A stretch of 20,000 bases of DNA from an uncultured virus (IMG/VR IMGVR_UViG_3300032030_002667) (Duplodnaviria > Heunggongvirae > Uroviricota > Caudoviricetes). Location: IMG/VR virus record IMGVR_UViG_3300032030_002667; one strand, written 5' to 3'. A program made the translations under genes and the position numbers. The notes beneath the pieces were generated by a model that did no database searches, was not told the DNA's origin, and saw only the letters and a program-made list of their open reading frames with translations. Within the stretch, counting starts at the first letter, position 1; each line of letters begins with the position of its first letter. Shown in pieces: positions 1-17,748 of the stretch.

Positions 1-33
1 TACTTTTGTTTATTAGGTCATACTGCTGCCTTC

Positions 34-236
34 GCCTCATTTTTACTTTGCAAAGGTAGCCAAGCCCGTGCCCTGCAAGTACCATTCATCCTTCATTATT
101 AGCGCACTTTTTTCAAAATCTTTTGGGACAAGCCTCAAAACATTTGCTTTGCCCTCTCGGTGAAATAAGTTCTCAATTCCTTGCATCTGCGCACTTTCCA
201 CTTTCGGCTCTCGTATTGCACGTAAAAATCAGAGGC
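34..236 (+). promoter_or_regulatory. Long imperfect inverted repeat (~200 nt) upstream of the ardC-like gene; candidate ssDNA promoter or structured leader
   Basis: GCCTC-ATTTTTAC-TT-TGCAA (34-53) pairs with TTGCA-C-GTAAAAAT-CA-GAGGC (216-236). TGCAAG (74-79) pairs with CTTGCA (180-185). Apical hairpin TTTTGGGAC-AA-GCCTCAAAA (121-140). All three are centred at ~130-135. Confidence 0.6.
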
Positions 237-275
237 TCAATGGCCTACAGTATTAACATTTTAATAAACAAAATT

Positions 276-1373
276 ATGAGTACTTACAAGACAAGAAAAG
301 CGCAGGCTAAGAAGGCTGGCGCAGGTGCTAACAGCGAAAGCGCACAAGAGAGAGCATTGAATCTCTTCGCGGACATGATGATCGAGAAGATTGAGTCTAT
401 CATGACAGATTGGAGCAAGCCTTGGTTCACAGAGGGCATCGCTTCGTGGCCGAAGAATTTATCTGGCAGATGCTACAATGGTATGAACAGCCTCATGCTC
501 CTGATGCACTGTGAGAAGCAAGGGTACAAGTACCCGGTGTTCTGTACATTCGACAGAGTGATGGGTCTCAATTACAACAAGACATCGGTGGGCAATGTGC
601 CTGCAGTGGATGCCGAGGGGAATAAGCGCCCGATGGTGTCGGTCAACAAGGGCGAGAAGAGTTTCCCTGTCTTCCTTACTTGCTTTACGGTCGTCAACAA
701 GGACACGAATGAGAAGATTAAGTACGAAGAGTACAAACAGATGCCTGAAAGCGAGAGGGAGCATTACAATGTCTATCCGAGCACAGTGGTTTACAATGTC
801 TTCAACATCGATCAGACAAACATGAAGGAGGCAAGGCCGGAGATTTACGAGAAAATCATCCTGGAGAATGGCGGGAAGAAGCAGGAGCACAAGGGAGAAA
901 TGTTCCATTTCGATGCTATGGACAGAATGATGGAAGAAAATCTCTGGATTTGTCCTATCAAGCAGCTGCATGGGGATAGTGCTTTCTATAGCATCTCCAA
1001 GAAGTTAATCGTGCTTCCAGAGTTCTCGCAGTTCAAGGATGGTGAGTCGTTCTACGGCACGGCGTTCCATGAAATGGCGCACAGCACGGGAGCGGAGGAG
1101 CATCTGAATCGGCTGAAGCCTGCTTCTTTCGGAAGTGCCGAATACGCACAAGAGGAATTGGTGGCAGAGCTGACAAGTGCGATGGTTTGCCAGTACTGCG
1201 GTATGGACAAATACATCAAGGAGGACAGTGCGCCTTATCTCAAATCATGGCTCTCTTCACTTCAGCAGGATGCACAGTACATCAAGACAATCCTGCTCGA
1301 TGTCAAGAGAGCATCGGCCATGATTACAAAGGCAATCGAGGATTGCACCAGTCAGGCAGCACAGGCTGCTTGA
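276..1373 (+). CDS. ardC: ArdC-like antirestriction protein (N-terminal ssDNA-binding DUF1738 domain + zincin-like metallopeptidase domain)
   Basis: W-x-K-P-W...P-x-N-x-SGR-x-Y-x-G-x-N N-terminal motif, VFNIDQT, HEMAHSTG (HExxH), YAQEELVAE. Start placed at ATG 276 after an AT-rich leader. Confidence 0.88.
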   Translation: MSTYKTRKAQAKKAGAGANSESAQERALNLFADMMIEKIESIMTDWSKPWFTEGIASWPKNLSGRCYNGMNSLMLLMHCEKQGYKYPVFCTFDRVMGLNYNKTSVGNVPAVDAEGNKRPMVSVNKGEKSFPVFLTCFTVVNKDTNEKIKYEEYKQMPESEREHYNVYPSTVVYNVFNIDQTNMKEARPEIYEKIILENGGKKQEHKGEMFHFDAMDRMMEENLWICPIKQLHGDSAFYSISKKLIVLPEFSQFKDGESFYGTAFHEMAHSTGAEEHLNRLKPASFGSAEYAQEELVAELTSAMVCQYCGMDKYIKEDSAPYLKSWLSSLQQDAQYIKTILLDVKRASAMITKAIEDCTSQAAQAA

Positions 1374-1393: not shown

Positions 1394-1420
1394 AGCCTGG
1401 GCTTCGGCTCAGGCTTTTTT
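1394..1420 (+). terminator. Intrinsic terminator after ardC
   Basis: AGCCTGGGC-TTCG-GCTCAGGCT stem with a cUUCGg loop, followed by a T run. Confidence 0.85.
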
Positions 1421-1421
1421 G

Positions 1422-4854: not shown

Positions 4855-5144
4855 ATTATCAACAAATCAATTTCACCTTGGACAATGGCAAGTATGTTGC
4901 CTCTGTTCAGCTGAGCGATGTGGCTGCACTGCACATCGAAAGGGAAGCCGCTGGCAATTTCAGTGCAAAGCAATCATCGCTGCCGGCTTCCTACAATCCT
5001 GCCTTTGCCAATCTCGAAGGGCTGTCTGATTGCTGCTTCATGCCTTCTGTGATGGACTTTGAACTCGCATTCGCTGTCTATCCTAAGTTCATCGAACTGC
5101 GCTCAGCTACACCGATCAAAAAAGCGTATCTGATTACACAGTAA
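4851..5144 (+). CDS. Hypothetical beta-rich protein (97 aa)
   Basis: ATGA overlap with the preceding gene, suggesting translational coupling. Confidence 0.7.
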   Translation: MNYQQINFTLDNGKYVASVQLSDVAALHIEREAAGNFSAKQSSLPASYNPAFANLEGLSDCCFMPSVMDFELAFAVYPKFIELRSATPIKKAYLITQ

Positions 5145-5151
5145 ATCCTAT

Positions 5152-5186
5152 CTCTTAACTCTTAACTCTTAACTCTTAATTCTTAA
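5152..5186 (+). repeat. Heptamer tandem repeat (CTCTTAA)x4 + TTCTTAA
   Basis: Read directly; ends 10 nt before ATG 5197. Confidence 0.9.
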
Positions 5187-5196
5187 CTCAACTCCC

Positions 5197-7587: not shown

Positions 7588-7595
7588 TACCTTTG
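7588..7595 (+). promoter_or_regulatory. Bacteroidetes -7 box (TACCTTTG) for the two-component cassette
   Basis: Consensus TAnnTTTG ending 18 nt before ATG 7614; the TGTCTTT element is absent. Confidence 0.7.
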
Positions 7596-7613
7596 CAAAA
7601 AAAAGAGAAAAAT

Positions 7614-8285
7614 ATGACCCCCATTATTAAAAATCCATTTTCAAAACTTTTGACTGTAAGAGATTTGGCCACAAAATCATACCAATTAAAATCTCAAAAC
7701 AAAAATTTAGTTAAAATACTTATCATTGATGATAATGATTTCGAGTATGAAAATGAGATGAGAGTATGTGGTTTTAATATTAATTGCGTGCGGGACCTTG
7801 AATACTTTAATATGGCTGAACCTTATCATATTATTATCAGTGATATTACAGGAGTAGGGAAAAAACTAAATTGTAAATACGAAGGTGTAGGGTTAATAAA
7901 TGCTTTAAAAAAACAATATCCATATAAGCTTTACGGAGTATATACTGGCAATAAGGTTAGTATTGACATTGCTACAGTGTTAAAAGATGTCAAGATTATC
8001 ACTAAAACCGGATTTGATAAAGACGATTGGGAATCTTTACTTGACGAATTCGTAAAAGAGAATAATGATCCGAAAACATGGTGGCTTAAATTACGAGGGG
8101 CTCTGCTTGATGAGGATATTTCATTATATGAATTAACATTATTAGAACATAAATATGTTAATTATATACTTCATAATAAAACTGATTTCAAAAAATTCCT
8201 TGAAGATAATCTTTCTAATGAATTGAAATCAGTTCTAATAAATATCAATTTTAACTTTAATAATTCAATCTTGTCAATAGCATGA
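7614..8285 (+). CDS. Response-regulator receiver domain protein with unrecognised C-terminal domain
   Basis: KILIIDD acidic pocket, IIISD phospho-Asp, EGVGLI, VYTG and IITK conserved positions; AT-rich. Confidence 0.78.
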   Translation: MTPIIKNPFSKLLTVRDLATKSYQLKSQNKNLVKILIIDDNDFEYENEMRVCGFNINCVRDLEYFNMAEPYHIIISDITGVGKKLNCKYEGVGLINALKKQYPYKLYGVYTGNKVSIDIATVLKDVKIITKTGFDKDDWESLLDEFVKENNDPKTWWLKLRGALLDEDISLYELTLLEHKYVNYILHNKTDFKKFLEDNLSNELKSVLININFNFNNSILSIA

Positions 8286-9412
8286 TAATATCTCCATTTC
8301 CATATAAAGTCATAGGTACAGATGAGATAAAAGATGGGTGTGTATTTAACATACCAAATTTTTGCGCAAAAAGACAGAAGAGTATGGATTGTAAACTTTT
8401 TTACTCCAAATTGAAATCTTCTATCGGAATTCAGAAATGCCCATTTGGATTTTGTGCCGAACGTGTACAATTTGGGGATCAGGATATTTATTTTACATGT
8501 CTTAATATTGAAAAACATAGCAAAAAGAAAGATGCACTTCGACGAATAAAAAATACTGATTTTAATCCTCGTATTTCACTTTCTAAATACGAACAGTTAA
8601 AATCATTGTTTAAGGAATCTTTGACTAGTAATTGTAATGTGCCAGTTGAATTTAATGAGGCAAAACAATCTGCTCTCTTACAAAATGAACGTGAAGCATT
8701 AGATAACGCAATACATGAGATTAACAACTTGACTAATCAATTAATCAGCAGAGCTGATAAGTTATCTGATGAAGTATCTGGGAATTTTGATAGAGAACAA
8801 ATCGAAGTTTTATCGAAAAACATCTATGCATTATCTAATCTTTTATCAATAAGGCTTGGTTCTTATAATCTTGAAGTTGATCCTTCCATTATCAAACAAA
8901 CAACGGAAATAGATATTGCAATTTTTAAGAAAATAGAAAAAGCATATAAATGCTTACAAGACAGTATAAATAAGAATAAAATTCAAGTTAACCTAAAAGG
9001 GAATAGTTATAACAAATACAAATCTGGTTCCATGCTTGAAATAGCATTCTTTATTATTTTGGAAAATGCAGTAAAATATTCTCCTAGGGGAGAAACTGTT
9101 GATGTTAATTTTTCAGAGATTGATGATTCATTAACTGTTACTTTTATTAATTGGGGGCCTAAACCCAGTGATGACGAAATAAAAAAATTGAATATGCGAG
9201 GATATAGGAGTAGAAATGTTCAAAATCAAACTGACATTCAGGGAAGAGGCATCGGTTTGTTTTTGGTACAACAAATATGTGATGCATACAATATCCAATT
9301 TCAATATTCAATCGAAAAAACATATAAAAAATTTAATGGAATTATATATGCTCCATTTTCTATTAAACTCATGTTTAAAAACATGATAGTTAATGGTTCA
9401 CAAATAAATTAG
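8282..9412 (+). CDS. Soluble sensor histidine kinase with Cys-rich (PocR-like) N-terminus
   Basis: H box AIHEINN, N box ILENAVKYS, G1-like NWG, G2 GRGIGLFLV; no TM helix; ATGA overlap with the receiver gene. Confidence 0.85.
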   Translation: MIISPFPYKVIGTDEIKDGCVFNIPNFCAKRQKSMDCKLFYSKLKSSIGIQKCPFGFCAERVQFGDQDIYFTCLNIEKHSKKKDALRRIKNTDFNPRISLSKYEQLKSLFKESLTSNCNVPVEFNEAKQSALLQNEREALDNAIHEINNLTNQLISRADKLSDEVSGNFDREQIEVLSKNIYALSNLLSIRLGSYNLEVDPSIIKQTTEIDIAIFKKIEKAYKCLQDSINKNKIQVNLKGNSYNKYKSGSMLEIAFFIILENAVKYSPRGETVDVNFSEIDDSLTVTFINWGPKPSDDEIKKLNMRGYRSRNVQNQTDIQGRGIGLFLVQQICDAYNIQFQYSIEKTYKKFNGIIYAPFSIKLMFKNMIVNGSQIN

Positions 9413-13688: not shown

Positions 13689-15460
13689 TTATATTGATTA
13701 ATAAACAGAGGGCTGTCCTGAAGAAGGGCACTTCTTTTGATTTCATCTCCGAGAACCACTACTTCACGGGGGCTGACAGTTATACGCTCTCCATTACGTT
13801 TCCTATCAAGGGATGTGCTGAGAACATCGCTATCTTCGGGCATATCTACCGAAAGGACTTCAACTTCGACACGGAGCTGCTGGACTGTGAGATACATGAC
13901 CAGGACTTCCACAAGTACGGCTCTGTGTCCATCGTGTCTGTATCTGACTCTGAGGTGAAGACGCAGTTCCTGGAAGGACGCTCTGCATCTAACTATCACT
14001 CTTCCCTTGATGAAATCTATATCAATGAGCTGACGATGCCGTCTCTGCATGATCAGGCGCATTGGCAGGCTTCACATTACTTGCGGCCCTATGCCGAGCA
14101 GATGCGGGATGGCAATTACCTCGGCTATGTCTGCCCGCCGTGGGTGAACAACACTTCCGGTAACATTCAGAATCCGATGGGGGCGTATGGCTCCATCTAT
14201 TACTATCAGGGTGGAGATCCTTCTTATGACCCGCCAATCGTTGGCTTCCCGTTCCTTATTGAGGTGATTAAGCAGGTGCTTTCGCGCTCTGGCTATCACT
14301 ATGACCTTTCTGCCATCGAGAACTCGGGTTTCTCTAACCTTATCATCTGTCAGGCTTTTCCCTATGTGTGGCACATGCCTTACATGAATCAGATCCTGCC
14401 GCATTGGACGGTGAGCGAGTTCCTGGAGCAGCTGGAGCTATTCCTGAACGGCACCTTCGAGATTGACCACAAGGCGCGTGAGGTGTCGTTCTCGTTCAAT
14501 GCGGGTTCTCTTGCTGGGATGAATATAGTGCAGATTGACGAGGTCCTTGACAGTCACTCGGTGGAGATTGCCAAGGAGGAGGATATCAAGGACAGCTATG
14601 TGGAGCAGAAGAACATCGCTTATCAGGACTGCGAACATCACATGTGGAAATTCTATTCTTGCGATTGGGCTACGTCATGTCTTCCGATGCAGGTTTACGC
14701 CAATTATGCTGCTATGAAGAGTCAGCTCAATAGTCTGCTTGTCTGTGCAGGGCCTCTGAATGCATGGCAGTATCGATACATCCACTATTGCAGGGAGGAA
14801 GATACGCACTTCGTGCTGAAGTGTGACCATACTGAGACTGTTGGGGATGTCATTCATCACTATATGCACATCCAGCCTGTCAATATGTTCAGGCCACGCA
14901 TCTTCAACGGCAATGACAATGCTGATGTGGTGGAGCTGGGCATCGTGCCGGCTTGTATTGACTTTACAGACGAAGTAAATGGCAGTATGCTATTTGTTGA
15001 CTGCGGCACGCTGGGGGATGACGTGGAGGATGCGGAAGACAGGGATGAGAACCAGACGCAGGCTGTCAATACGCTTGCCATCGGAGAACAGGAGAAGAAG
15101 GAGGAGTACTTCGACAAGATTCATGTGGGCTTCTGGGATGGTACTTACATCAAGTATCATCCACAAATGCCACACCCGTATGTGGACAGGCATGAAGTGA
15201 GGCCTGACAATACTTATACTTACAATATGTATTCCATGCGGCTTGCTGGCAAGGAAATGGCTACCACAAGGACTACGCATTTCTTCGTGAATCAGCAGCG
15301 GAAGTTCACGTTCTCGTTCCTCGCTGATACTGTACCCGATGTGCATAGCATCTTCCTCATTCACGGCAAGAAGTACCTGGCTGAGAAGATAGCAGCGACC
15401 TTCTCTGCCGAAACAGGAAGGTCGCGTGTGTTGAAGCTTGTCTGCTATCAGATGTTCTAG
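13685..15460 (+). CDS. Probable phage tail tip/baseplate hub protein
   Basis: 591 aa, ATGA-coupled to the tape measure gene; N-terminal ENHYF..SYTLSITFP motif typical of post-TMP tail proteins. Confidence 0.65.
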   Translation: MIILINKQRAVLKKGTSFDFISENHYFTGADSYTLSITFPIKGCAENIAIFGHIYRKDFNFDTELLDCEIHDQDFHKYGSVSIVSVSDSEVKTQFLEGRSASNYHSSLDEIYINELTMPSLHDQAHWQASHYLRPYAEQMRDGNYLGYVCPPWVNNTSGNIQNPMGAYGSIYYYQGGDPSYDPPIVGFPFLIEVIKQVLSRSGYHYDLSAIENSGFSNLIICQAFPYVWHMPYMNQILPHWTVSEFLEQLELFLNGTFEIDHKAREVSFSFNAGSLAGMNIVQIDEVLDSHSVEIAKEEDIKDSYVEQKNIAYQDCEHHMWKFYSCDWATSCLPMQVYANYAAMKSQLNSLLVCAGPLNAWQYRYIHYCREEDTHFVLKCDHTETVGDVIHHYMHIQPVNMFRPRIFNGNDNADVVELGIVPACIDFTDEVNGSMLFVDCGTLGDDVEDAEDRDENQTQAVNTLAIGEQEKKEEYFDKIHVGFWDGTYIKYHPQMPHPYVDRHEVRPDNTYTYNMYSMRLAGKEMATTRTTHFFVNQQRKFTFSFLADTVPDVHSIFLIHGKKYLAEKIAATFSAETGRSRVLKLVCYQMF

Positions 15461-16587
15461 AGTATGGATGAAGCCAGAACTTCAGAATGTCGTTGAACTG
15501 TGGTCTTCAGAATCTTACAATAAATTTGAGTCGTTTTTATGTCACTATGGCCTAACATCCGTGAAATGTCCTCTATTGGCACGTCATGGGCTAAGGCCAA
15601 TGTGGCAAAGCTGTGACGAGCCAAATGGAAGGTCAGACTCTTCTTGAATCCGCATTGCACCTCAATGACATGAAGATAGTCATTCGCCTTCTGATTCGTT
15701 ATCTTCGGCAATTTGAAATCGTATTTCTTCAAGACATCCATGGCTGGTTTCAAAATGGGTGTATAAAACTCTGTTCCTGTCTTTAAGCGTTCACTGTCTA
15801 TGTAGTACAGACGTCCAATTTTGTGTGTCATTTTCTTAAAGTCAAAGCGTTGTACATCTGCATAAGCCATACCAGTATAGGCTGCAAAGATAAATAAGTC
15901 ACGCACGCGGTCTAACTTGTCTATTAACTGTACCTTGCGCATTTTCAGTAATTCCTGTTCTGTTAGCGGAGTCCTTGGCTTGCTATGCCCACGAGAAATC
16001 TTGCAATACTCATAAGGGTCATGTTCTATAATTTCATTGAGCTTCAGAATGCGAGTGTACTTCTTGATGCGCTTGTGATAGTTCCATATAGTTACTTCTG
16101 TACGCTCTCCTGTGTCGTGGAGCCAACGGTCAAAGGCTCGGATATTGGCAGGAGTGAGGTCAGCTATTGTCTTGATCTTACCATAGGACACTAAGGTATC
16201 AAGAACAAGTTTTTTGTGACGCAATGTGCCTTCCCGCAATTTCTCGCGTTTGATTTCACTACGCATGAATTCAATAAAATCTCGTTCAAGGGGAGTTTCT
16301 TTAACTTTTTTACACTTCTCTTCTTCAATATAGGCATTGAAATTTTCGATAGTCAAATCCTCACCAAGAATCCTCATGGCACGGACAATTTCCTCATAGT
16401 GCTCTAGCTGAAGTTCAAGTTCTCTGCTGTGCTGATAGGTTTTCCAACCTGCTTTTGTAGTTGAGCCGACAACAATGTACTTACGAACATTCCTATCAAG
16501 GTAAACCCTAATCTCAACTTTGCCACGTCCTTTCTTTGCCGCGACACCCTTCCTGTCAAAAATGACTGATACGTTTTTTTGCTGCAT
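15457..16587 (-). CDS. Tyrosine recombinase / phage integrase (Bacteroidetes type, arm-binding + SAM + catalytic domains)
   Basis: RDLFIFAAYTGMAYAD, RLKT, TFHLARHSFAT, MLGHSDIKTTQIY; adjacent to a tRNA 3' end. Confidence 0.95.
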   Translation of the reverse strand: MQQKNVSVIFDRKGVAAKKGRGKVEIRVYLDRNVRKYIVVGSTTKAGWKTYQHSRELELQLEHYEEIVRAMRILGEDLTIENFNAYIEEEKCKKVKETPLERDFIEFMRSEIKREKLREGTLRHKKLVLDTLVSYGKIKTIADLTPANIRAFDRWLHDTGERTEVTIWNYHKRIKKYTRILKLNEIIEHDPYEYCKISRGHSKPRTPLTEQELLKMRKVQLIDKLDRVRDLFIFAAYTGMAYADVQRFDFKKMTHKIGRLYYIDSERLKTGTEFYTPILKPAMDVLKKYDFKLPKITNQKANDYLHVIEVQCGFKKSLTFHLARHSFATLALAHDVPIEDISRMLGHSDIKTTQIYCKILKTTVQRHSEVLASSIL

Positions 16588-16640
16588 TTTTTGCGTTTTT
16601 TAGGCATCCTAAGTTACACATTGTCAACGGAATAAATGCG

Positions 16641-16710
16641 TTTTGTGTACATTTTGTGTACACAACTTGTGTACATCGCCGATGAATGTACACAAAATGA
16701 TGTACACAAA
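16641..16710. repeat. Cluster of TGTACACAA/TTGTGTACA direct and inverted repeats; likely integrase arm-type sites
   Basis: TTGTGTACA at 16643, 16654 and 16667; TGTACACAA at 16657, 16687 and 16701; located between the integrase start and the tRNA. Confidence 0.7.
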
Positions 16711-16838
16711 TGTCGTTTTCTGTCCTTTTCCGTCTTTCTGTGTCGCTCTTGATGCGAGTTAAACATTTACCTCGTCTAACCCTCACAAATCACTGAAAAT
16801 GCGATATTTATATATGAATATCAGGCCTTTATAAACAC

Positions 16839-16866
16839 AAAAAGAGAGCTCTTTTAAGAACTCTCT
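16839..16866 (-). terminator. Terminator downstream of tRNA-Thr
   Basis: Minus strand AGAGAGTTCT-TAAA-AGAGCTCTCT followed by a T run. Confidence 0.75.
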
Positions 16867-16880
16867 AATTGCGTTTTCTG

Positions 16881-16954
16881 AGCCTCTTGTCGGATTCGAA
16901 CCAACGACCCCGAGATTACAAATCACGTGCTCTGGCCAACTGAGCTAAAGAGGC
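16881..16954 (-). tRNA. tRNA-Thr (anticodon TGT)
   Basis: Reverse complement GCCTCTTTAGCTCAGTTGGCCAGAGCACGTGATTTGTAATCTCGGGGTCGTTGGTTCGAATCCGACAAGAGGCT: acceptor stem, D arm, TGT loop and TTCGAAT T-loop. Confidence 0.97.
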
Positions 16955-16957
16955 GGG

Positions 16958-17055
16958 TGGGAAAGCTTACTATATCGCGCCGCTACGACCTGCTGCCCTT
17001 GCTGCGGTCAAGCCCTGGGGGATTCACAAGGAGCATGCCGTATAGGACTTTCCCA
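16958..17055 (-). ncRNA. ffs: Bacterial small SRP RNA (4.5S)
   Basis: ~98-nt hairpin closed by TGGGAAAG/CTTTCCCA, with helix 8 motif CAGG-GCT-TGAC-CGC-AGCAA. Confidence 0.85.
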
Positions 17056-17069
17056 TGATTTTGCGGGTG

Positions 17070-17100
17070 CAAAGGTACAACTTATAATTCAAAATTCAAA
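17070..17100 (-). promoter_or_regulatory. Bacteroidetes promoter for ffs-tRNA-Thr
   Basis: -7 box TACCTTTG (17070-17077, minus strand) and TTTG (17097-17100) 19 nt upstream. Confidence 0.75.
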
Positions 17101-17117
17101 ATTCAAAATTCAAAATT
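17086..17117 (+). repeat. Heptamer tandem repeat (AATTCAA)x4 + AATT
   Basis: Read directly. Confidence 0.9.
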
Positions 17118-17172
17118 GTTTCTTTAAAGAGTTTTTTTTGCCCTTTATACATTATTTATATTATAAATTTCG

Positions 17173-17180
17173 TACCTTTG
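17173..17180 (+). promoter_or_regulatory. Bacteroidetes -7 box for the host envelope operon
   Basis: TACCTTTG ending 19 nt before ATG 17200. Confidence 0.7.
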
Positions 17181-17199
17181 TCCGCTCATAGAATAATCA

Positions 17200-17748
17200 A
17201 TGGACAAGAAGGTTCCCTCTATAATGGATGCTGCCGGCTGGATGGCTCTGCCGATTGGACTGATGTGGTCGGCAAGCTTCCTCTGTACAATGTACGGAGC
17301 AGAACGTCCCTTACTCTCGATGCTCAGCACGGCTCTGGGCATCATCAGCATCTACACGCTCTACAAGCAGCTGACAAACTACCGCAAGTTCTATCCTTCG
17401 GTCAGTTGGCTCCACGTCCTTCGGCTCTCGTTCGTAACGTGTCTGCTGGCAGGCTTACTGACCGATGCCGTTCAATACCTCTACTTCCTTTATCTCGACA
17501 ATGGGCGTTTGCTCTCGTTGCTCGGTAATGCTTTCCAAAGCGAGGAATATCGCGAAGCATGGAAGCAGATGATGCCCGACGTGAATCTGGACGAAATGCA
17601 GAAGCTGGTGCAGTCCATGACCGTCCGCGACATTATGCTCCAGCTCGTGTTCTACAACGTCTTGCTGGCTTTGCCCGTCTCTCTGATTGCTGCCCTGCCT
17701 GTAAGAGCGCCTCAACCGCCTAATAAAGAAATCAATAATAAATCGTAA
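17200..17748 (+). CDS. DUF4199-like membrane protein
   Basis: Four hydrophobic segments; typical Bacteroidales position upstream of a GT2 gene. Confidence 0.7.
   Translation: MDKKVPSIMDAAGWMALPIGLMWSASFLCTMYGAERPLLSMLSTALGIISIYTLYKQLTNYRKFYPSVSWLHVLRLSFVTCLLAGLLTDAVQYLYFLYLDNGRLLSLLGNAFQSEEYREAWKQMMPDVNLDEMQKLVQSMTVRDIMLQLVFYNVLLALPVSLIAALPVRAPQPPNKEINNKS

Follow-up and report, generated by a model that had tools for sequence, protein, structure and literature searches.

The fold-back upstream of the anti-restriction gene ardC in a Prevotella-type prophage is only the turn of an imperfect inverted repeat of about 2 kb, in which the left half carries a complete Bacteroidota promoter and a broken copy of ardC, and the right half the intact gene and no promoter. 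The reading that we favor, and regard as reasonably likely, is that the fold-back is a single-strand promoter on the minus strand, with the mirror arm standing in for the non-template strand. The two parts of this reading do not stand equally, such that the core probably works as a single-strand promoter, while the stand-in role of the mirror arm is more doubtful. The gene-length mirror arm may be new in kind.

The Element and Its Genomic Setting

The window, that is the whole stretch of 20,000 nt analyzed here, is the terminal 20 kb of a 66,477-nt virus record, which is a Prevotella-type prophage. Genome loci with the promoter-arm motif have titles that are mostly Prevotella, Prevotellaceae and Hallella, with related prophages in records named Hallella multisaccharivorax and Prevotella lacticifex, and the public runs best matching the stretch are mostly sheep and cattle gut metagenomes. 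The phage genes of the record include a primase, a ClpP-type head protease, an amidase and a tape measure protein, with a weak terminase match, and a related 429-aa protein has capsid clusters as its nearest neighbors in the Atlas (0.90; a lead only). The gene behind the fold-back encodes ArdcN and MPTase-PolyVal domains. At the other end of the window, the region 15457-17200 holds a minus-strand gene (15457-16587), which we take from its motifs to be tyrosine-integrase-like, and then host-like DUF4199, glycosyltransferase, DUF6452 and DUF6048 genes; beyond 17.2 kb the genes are host-like, and the right attachment site probably lies between the integrase-like gene and the host-like genes. The fold-back had initially been likened to elements of conjugative leading regions, a setting that is not apparent here: the window is prophage DNA, and the record and three related phage records gave no match to three relaxase families. 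Contig sets from four RNA runs show flat coverage over the stretch and may hold DNA, so that no start, strand or level can be read from them.

Several other features of the record were observed. In the tail region, an AT-rich two-gene insert (window 7593-9412), of which the second gene is a histidine-kinase-like ATPase, has its own -7 box at 7588; the mirror scores that the contig scan gives for it are modest (at most 123). A 7-nt unit forms a short tandem run directly after a stop codon (window 5142-5190). Outside the window, right after the terminase, the record carries about 20 kb of cargo (record ~13.7-35.3 kb), including genes with Abi_2, PHP, FRG and Fic domains.

Architecture of the Promoter Core

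The primary-sigma promoter of Bacteroidota is described with TTTG at -33 and TAnnTTTG at -7, and the rows of the start-site table in the same source place starts 4-5 nt after TTTG (PMC7366714). In the fold of the minus strand, which is the template of ardC, TTG (within CTTG, 79-76), 17 nt and TACCTTTG (58-51) follow each other on the predicted non-template arm and face into ardC (Table 1). From the published distance of 4-5 nt past TTTG, the start is predicted at G222, giving a 54-nt leader; a G occupies this position in 40 of 41 homologues, partly through selection. The inverted repeats on which the first-pass annotation had built its proposal are present where it placed them, with 34-53 opposite 216-236, a perfect 74-79/180-185 and an imperfect hairpin at 121-140, and 51-58 indeed lies opposite 211-218, with 54-57 mismatched. 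Its strand logic has to be reversed, however: a plus fold would make 51-58 the template and send the polymerase away from ardC, and only the minus fold points into the gene, so that the idea was right and the strand wrong. Its extent of about 200 nt was likewise too short, since the pairing takes in most of ardC on one side and about 750 nt beyond the left edge of the window on the other.

Table 1. Parts of the fold-back and of the ardC unit, in window coordinates.
Feature	Position	Strand	Remarks
Mirror arm, inner end	1..46	-	non-coding, deletion-riddled copy of ardC leader and gene
Incidental TAnnTTTG inside mirror arm	1..8	+	268 nt before ATG; not conserved
Outer stem, left arm	34..53		pairs with 216-236; covariation
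Consensus Bacteroidota -7 box, TACCTTTG	51..58	-	predicted non-template arm; first bases face mismatches, predicted pre-opened bubble
17-nt spacer	59..75	-	two short covarying helices with 186-210
-33 box, CTTG on minus	76..79	-	paired with 180-185
Variable inner loop and internal hairpins (incl. 121-140)	80..179		length and sequence differ across family
Predicted template arm: -33 complement, bulged spacer, non-consensus face of -7 box	180..221	-	
Predicted start G222 and 54-nt AU-rich leader	222..275	+	paired with 1-46 in fold
ardC	276..1373	+	248-1179 (strict) or up to ~1270 (relaxed) complementary to mirror arm
Intrinsic-terminator-like hairpin and T run, end of unit	1394..1421	+	L142 12871-12892

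Folded as DNA, the minus strand of 34-236 is more stable than expected (z -3.2, none of 300 dinucleotide shuffles as good), compared with z -1.2 and 37 of 300 for the plus strand; for 1-275 the minus strand reaches z -4.9 (0/200 shuffles as good). When 1-300 was folded as plus-strand RNA, 9 of 200 shuffles were as good (z -1.8). A structured RNA leader had been offered as the alternative, and the search of Rfam 15 over 1-300 returned no match at E up to 5. The SorX/SorY matches at 1340-1422 are weak, stay below the gathering score and cover the terminator, and were rejected. No sigma-70-type site was found in the element. A plus-strand TAnnTTTG near the start of ardC, which had been said to be missing, does exist at 1-8, and it is not conserved, as such boxes occur within 300 nt upstream in six of 51 elements against a chance expectation of 6.6; the forward box could allow leaky double-strand transcription in the window copy.

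Conservation, Covariation and Strand of the Core

Exactly three matches at strong scores are found by the covariance model in the record, which holds three fold-backs. The homologues analyzed are a non-redundant set of 41 viral and genome loci, filtered from 58, for which both arms and less than 92% identity were required, so that conservation of the selecting motifs is partly circular. In an unbiased scan of the 4,956 column pairs of this set, none of the top seven Watson-Crick signals falls outside the predicted register, and 82.5% of cells are paired, compared with 38-48% in slid controls. Compensatory changes, without which the first-pass idea would have had to be given up, are frequent: 141 two-sided changes were counted against 47.9 in shuffles, with none of 500 shuffles reaching this number. 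The spacer measures 17-18 nt in 37/41 homologues, and the promoter spacing is fixed on the gene-distal arm, with extra bulges on the gene-proximal arm, which in no case (0/41) reads plus-strand TAnnTTTG. The minus strand folds lower than the plus strand in 38 of the 41, and in 37 beyond the shuffle difference, counts that are not independent because the homologues are related. Default RNAalifold on the 41-sequence alignment returned no pairs on either strand, while ribosum scoring recovered the stem, on both strands. Wobbles in the core lean slightly to the plus strand (40 G-T against 23 A-C in the 41 homologues, both types below the 16% null; 41 against 29 in a second count).

Two other sets are less circular, namely loci selected on the terminase and viral matches picked on the promoter arm alone. 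Among 80 loci chosen by terminase alone (two of them on contigs that also supplied training sequences), the model matched 25 times in 15 loci, and 11 of the 31 loci of at least 15 kb carry a match within the DNA examined. All 25 matches lie on one strand, compared with a 253/144 split for ordinary -7 boxes, although the phage genes here all run one way and co-orientation is expected anyway. The 24 distinct matches show the same covariation on the model-fitted alignment.

Outside this group, the model did not match either of two phages that are more distantly related (26-33% identity in the terminase), one of them an isolated phage. Phage BT-TP2 is described in PMC12694917. The order-wide search matched at least two of 151 genomes, with 15 candidates scored per genome, and for that reason is uninformative on range. 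A scan with a 3'-arm pattern listed 120 of about 640 stretches, mostly chance matches, and a 5'-arm-like motif was present in 46/130 matches. No match to 16-275 was returned by blastn against 72,556 plasmids and 50,697 phages, and Rfam gave nothing at the gathering score in 133 kb of plasmid and ICE relatives.

The two paralogous fold-backs of the record lie outside the window, at 35698-35933 (L142 698-933) and 43544-43745 (L142 8544-8745), and precede a 74-aa gene of unknown function and a gene with a MutS_I domain; their mirror arms are weaker (z 13 and 9). The 74-aa family (L142 961-1182) heads most of the phage cassettes, is without Pfam or PHROG match and falls into an unnamed viral cluster of the Atlas. 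Genes with a phosphoribosyltransferase domain also recur behind the fold-back (L146 10757-11278; L143 7550-8071).

The Gene-Length Mirror Arm

The mirror arm reaches about 745 nt past the left edge of the window (contig ~45,735-46,523), up to the stop codon of the preceding gene. This upstream tract is non-coding and pyrimidine-rich on the plus strand, and gives a reversed, collinear alignment with ardC and its leader at a score of 409, compared with 80 +/- 10 in 200 shuffles and at most 87 across 112 other contig tiles. Under strict scoring, the arm from window -663 to 25 aligns to 248-1179; about 61% of the gene bases are paired, with 89% identity in ungapped columns. For the minus strand, the predicted hairpin spans about 2,000 bases, and a piece of 1,481 nt folds as one rod (-341.5 kcal/mol on minus, -323.1 on plus, as DNA). 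The duplex energy of the long arm is nearly equal on the two strands, both as DNA (-379.5 plus, -383.5 minus) and as RNA (-706 plus, -723 minus). Among 325 mirror tiles in the record, the six top scorers, one AT-rich tile apart, lie at the three fold-backs. A 76-nt island common to the upstream tracts of the window and of the related phage locus L002 was considered as a transfer origin and rejected, being part of the ardC mirror.

The arm is present in 49/53 viral or prophage elements, in 3/19 plasmid or ICE elements and in 0/25 ordinary promoters, after five of 77 elements that were too short had been dropped. The three plasmid or ICE copies with a long arm all precede ssb (L162; L166; L188 11095-11306), and the other 16 indicate that the arm is not needed for the promoter. 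The scan with the promoter arm alone yielded 77 viral matches, of which 66 are distinct and 63 have the partner arm, and the mirror arm was found in all 62 testable distinct matches. Relatives within the set were found for 73/74 ORFs on the side from which the promoter points away, where the intact, conserved gene lies; on the promoter-facing side a single ORF of 55, a 35-aa remnant, matches the gene family.

Each arm is matched to the gene that it accompanies, which is its best match in 50 of 52 cases. The ardC genes of the window and L002 are 82% identical, and the two arms score 75 to each other against 250 and 400 to their own genes. The own-gene claim rests on these scores, because the direct count of tracking (2,092 against 141) was made on alignments to the own gene and is biased by them; aligned to the other gene it reads 174 against 407, in far fewer cells.

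Fold-Backs in Conjugative Elements

In conjugative elements the model matches lie on the strand of the relaxase gene throughout (17/17), comprising six of six in three related records with a MobV gene, eight of eight full-length matches in NZ_OY725888.1, and three of three weak full-length matches in pMMCAT, which lie on the strand of mobC and its relaxase. The strand of the relaxase gene would mark the transferred strand. Behind these hairpins lie ssb, pcfK/pcfJ, DUF4313, LPD11, LPD28 and unnamed small genes.

On plasmid p5482 a strong and similar, though more loosely related, hairpin (L189 31322-31515) lies 330 nt before ardC; it was recognized by eye and in the fold, whereas the model missed it. 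In the supplement of PMC7366714 a minus-strand start at 31,349 is listed from its distal arm, in mid-log only, and the ardC of p5482 has an ordinary promoter at 31,783; among the locus rows and the orphan list of that supplement there is no plus-strand start at the fold-back. The mapped leftward start means that the distal arm is a working promoter sequence, directed away from the gene in resident DNA. The concern of the first-pass annotation that 51-58 might simply drive a leftward gene is thus borne out in part: the p5482 arm fires leftward in growing cells, but there is no conserved leftward protein-coding gene at the fold-back here.

Diverged fold-backs were also seen on pMMCAT (L186 7812-8000, 14114-14302 and 26287-26476), as well as before L187 27888 and L186 25460; near-identical copies precede LPD28, pcfK and DUF2958, and one before ssb was seen by eye. 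In L188, further fold-back-like regions upstream of 9531, 13181 and 15630 were noticed by eye and are absent from the model list, so the element may carry more than eight. Prophages of other families, with tape measure, portal or capsid, amidase and reverse transcriptase genes, lie inside or beside MobV conjugative elements in G004 (~31-81 kb) and G005 (~45-83 kb).

A Model for Expression From a Folded Single Strand

In duplex DNA the promoter would point off ardC, leaving the gene silent. Once single-stranded, the minus strand would fold and reunite promoter and gene, so that both boxes, the -33 and a pre-opened -7, come to lie on the non-template arm, and the host RNA polymerase would begin near G222 and transcribe ardC. 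Less securely, the mirror arm may serve as a stand-in non-template strand, such that the mRNA peels off instead of staying hybridized, and the regular bulges may keep perfect helices short and thereby the repeat stable in double-stranded DNA. For archaeal and Thermus polymerases, RNA displacement is described to depend on re-annealing of the non-template strand (PMC2241882; PMC1557819). Paired at about 65%, the mirror arm could lose out to a perfect RNA-DNA hybrid. A possible origin of the arm is copying of the gene primed by the fold-back, from which the match of arms to their own genes would follow. The model leaves the source of single-stranded DNA in the phages unexplained, given that no relaxase was matched in the record and the three related phages; our guess is strand-displacement replication after induction or entry. 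It is possible, and we put it forward tentatively, that a clade of tailed phages of Prevotellaceae builds pseudo-duplex genes, that is, anti-defense cassettes with selected, bulged mirror copies that form foldable transcription units. Should this be true, these phages would have an unrecognized single-stranded stage, in entry, packaging or replication, that expresses ArdC and small early proteins.

Two serious rivals concern the arm, RNA silencing and a decaying scar. The arm could act in RNA, whether or not the core is a single-strand promoter, such that in a plus transcript reading through from phage promoters upstream the arm pairs with the ardC mRNA and silences ardC, and a transcript from the leftward consensus promoter could bind the arm and free the gene. 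We find this rather improbable, although the arm covers the translation start, p5482 has its mapped leftward start, and the plus strand can fold into a rod as well (-323 kcal/mol as DNA); also, few ICE copies have the arm, while nearly all phage copies do, and these sit in long runs of co-directional genes. Moreover, on pLS20 structured leaders before ardC are described to stop read-through (PMC8708921). Wobble pairs speak against an action in RNA, since G-U is not enriched on the plus strand, both types in the core stay below the 16% null, and isolated mismatches in the long arm favor minus-strand wobble (133 against 77 of 405, mostly A-to-G changes). Neither a conserved plus-strand promoter nor an Rfam match was found, and the fixed promoter spacing, the bubble and the arm-less ICE copies would be left without explanation. 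Perfect palindromes are unstable in double-stranded DNA, and a fold-back copy primed by the free 3' end of the hairpin would for that reason decay, so that the arm beside a genuine single-strand promoter could be the scar of such an event, which we regard as unlikely. This accounts for the own-gene matching of arms that, as in the window and L002, barely match each other; near-perfect arms would break assemblies and very decayed arms would go undetected, so that the pairing range of 60-77% may be a filter. Neutral decay fits less well with an arm retained in 62/62, and with interruptions that are more even than in simulated decay: the longest perfect arm-gene run of the window is 11 nt, against at least 18 in 60 simulated neutral decays, and is shorter than random (below the 5% level) in 17 of 33 loci. 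The window arm preferentially lacks T-rich pieces (37% against 21%), and the number of gap events (1,791) comes close to that of mismatched columns (2,214). Part of the interruption pattern could stem from selection that does no more than remove long perfect runs.

Two further explanations dispense with a promoter in the folded strand. One takes 51-79 as an ordinary double-strand promoter that makes a leftward RNA, either non-coding or antisense, with ardC expressed by read-through and the pairing incidental; the consensus is perfect on the minus strand and the p5482 relative has its mapped leftward start, but the two-sided covariation and the lack of conserved ORFs on the promoter-facing side (1/55 against 73/74 opposite) make it very unlikely. 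The other is inversion. Bacteroides phase variation uses invertible promoters, for which both orientations occur in a population and which are flanked by perfect inverted recombination sites, and recombination between the inverted homologies could here turn the promoter toward ardC. The promoter type, the inverted homology and the tyrosine-integrase-like gene of the element would suit such a switch, which we nevertheless hold to be scarcely credible: no flipped copy occurs among the 77 assembled viral matches or the 25 terminase-selected ones, all of them assemblies, the arms are imperfect, with no perfect arm-gene match longer than 11 nt, although short recombination sites may be present, and, as a weak argument, the four RNA-run contig sets contain no strand-switch joint.

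Implications

Studies of single-strand promoters concern E. coli-type plasmids. One in Bacteroidota, a major phylum of the gut, would provide a testable rule for the expression of establishment genes when its conjugative elements, including pMMCAT, arrive in a new cell, and a sequence marker for their transferred strand; the p5482 fold-back with its mapped leftward start is a ready test case in a laboratory strain. The phage copies add a non-coding mirror of a whole gene, matched to the own gene in each lineage. If functional, this arm would be a natural answer to the release of mRNA from a single-stranded template, and would hint that phages taken to stay double-stranded throughout pass through a single-stranded phase; an arm that acts in RNA would instead be a kilobase-scale cis-antisense switch.

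Comparison With Known Systems

Neither a Bacteroidota single-strand promoter nor a gene-length mirror arm was encountered in the literature searched, which covers few subscription papers. The term "bacteroid" is absent from the main text of PMC11541004, and the supplements of that paper and of the bioRxiv study cited below could hold Bacteroidota candidates.

Several systems share individual traits with the fold-back. As described in PMC8708921, EGeRS1 of the pLS20-family plasmids is also structured non-coding DNA before ardC and establishment genes, repeated and without a constitutive forward promoter. EGeRS1 is, however, branched, measures 400-750 bp, has no promoter in the fold, and has the transferred strand as its non-template strand, while the fold-back forms one rod, the distal arm of which carries a consensus promoter. 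The establishment promoters of p576 that are repressed by Reg576 are likewise a route to transient ardC expression, but they are described as ordinary forward promoters with repressor boxes (PMC6294495), whereas the fold-back has no forward consensus promoter. To the ordinary primary-sigma promoter of Bacteroidota, 51-79 corresponds on the minus strand, and the p5482 relative is used as one in the start-site data (PMC7366714); in contrast to such promoters, it points off the gene in the duplex and is paired with a covarying, non-consensus arm.

The closest systems are Frpo1/Frpo2 (ssp1) and ssp2 of F, ssi of ColIb-P9, and the Frpo-like candidates of Samuel et al. (PMC9849209; PMC11541004; bioRxiv 10.64898/2026.01.09.698686). 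As far as these sources describe them, they too are non-coding stem-loops predicted to rebuild the boxes of a housekeeping promoter on one folded strand, and they lie in several copies per element upstream of ssb and anti-restriction genes, just as the fold-back heads anti-defense or establishment genes, ardC here and ssb and pcfK/pcfJ in relatives. The boxes differ, being sigma-70 -35/-10 in the described elements and Bacteroidota -33/-7 in the fold-back, which also lacks a nucleotide match to the 72,556 plasmids and occurs in prophages without a relaxase match. The stem moreover extends by 300-900 nt as a gene mirror in the phage copies, unlike Frpo as described. The proposal of the first-pass annotation that the fold-back is a Bacteroidetes analogue of Frpo therefore holds for the promoter in the fold, which covariation and strand support; it had the strand reversed, and the conjugative leading region that it assumed is not apparent in this prophage. 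The fold-back would work like Frpo/ssi and is not a member of that group, as it has other boxes, no sequence match and, here, a non-conjugative context.
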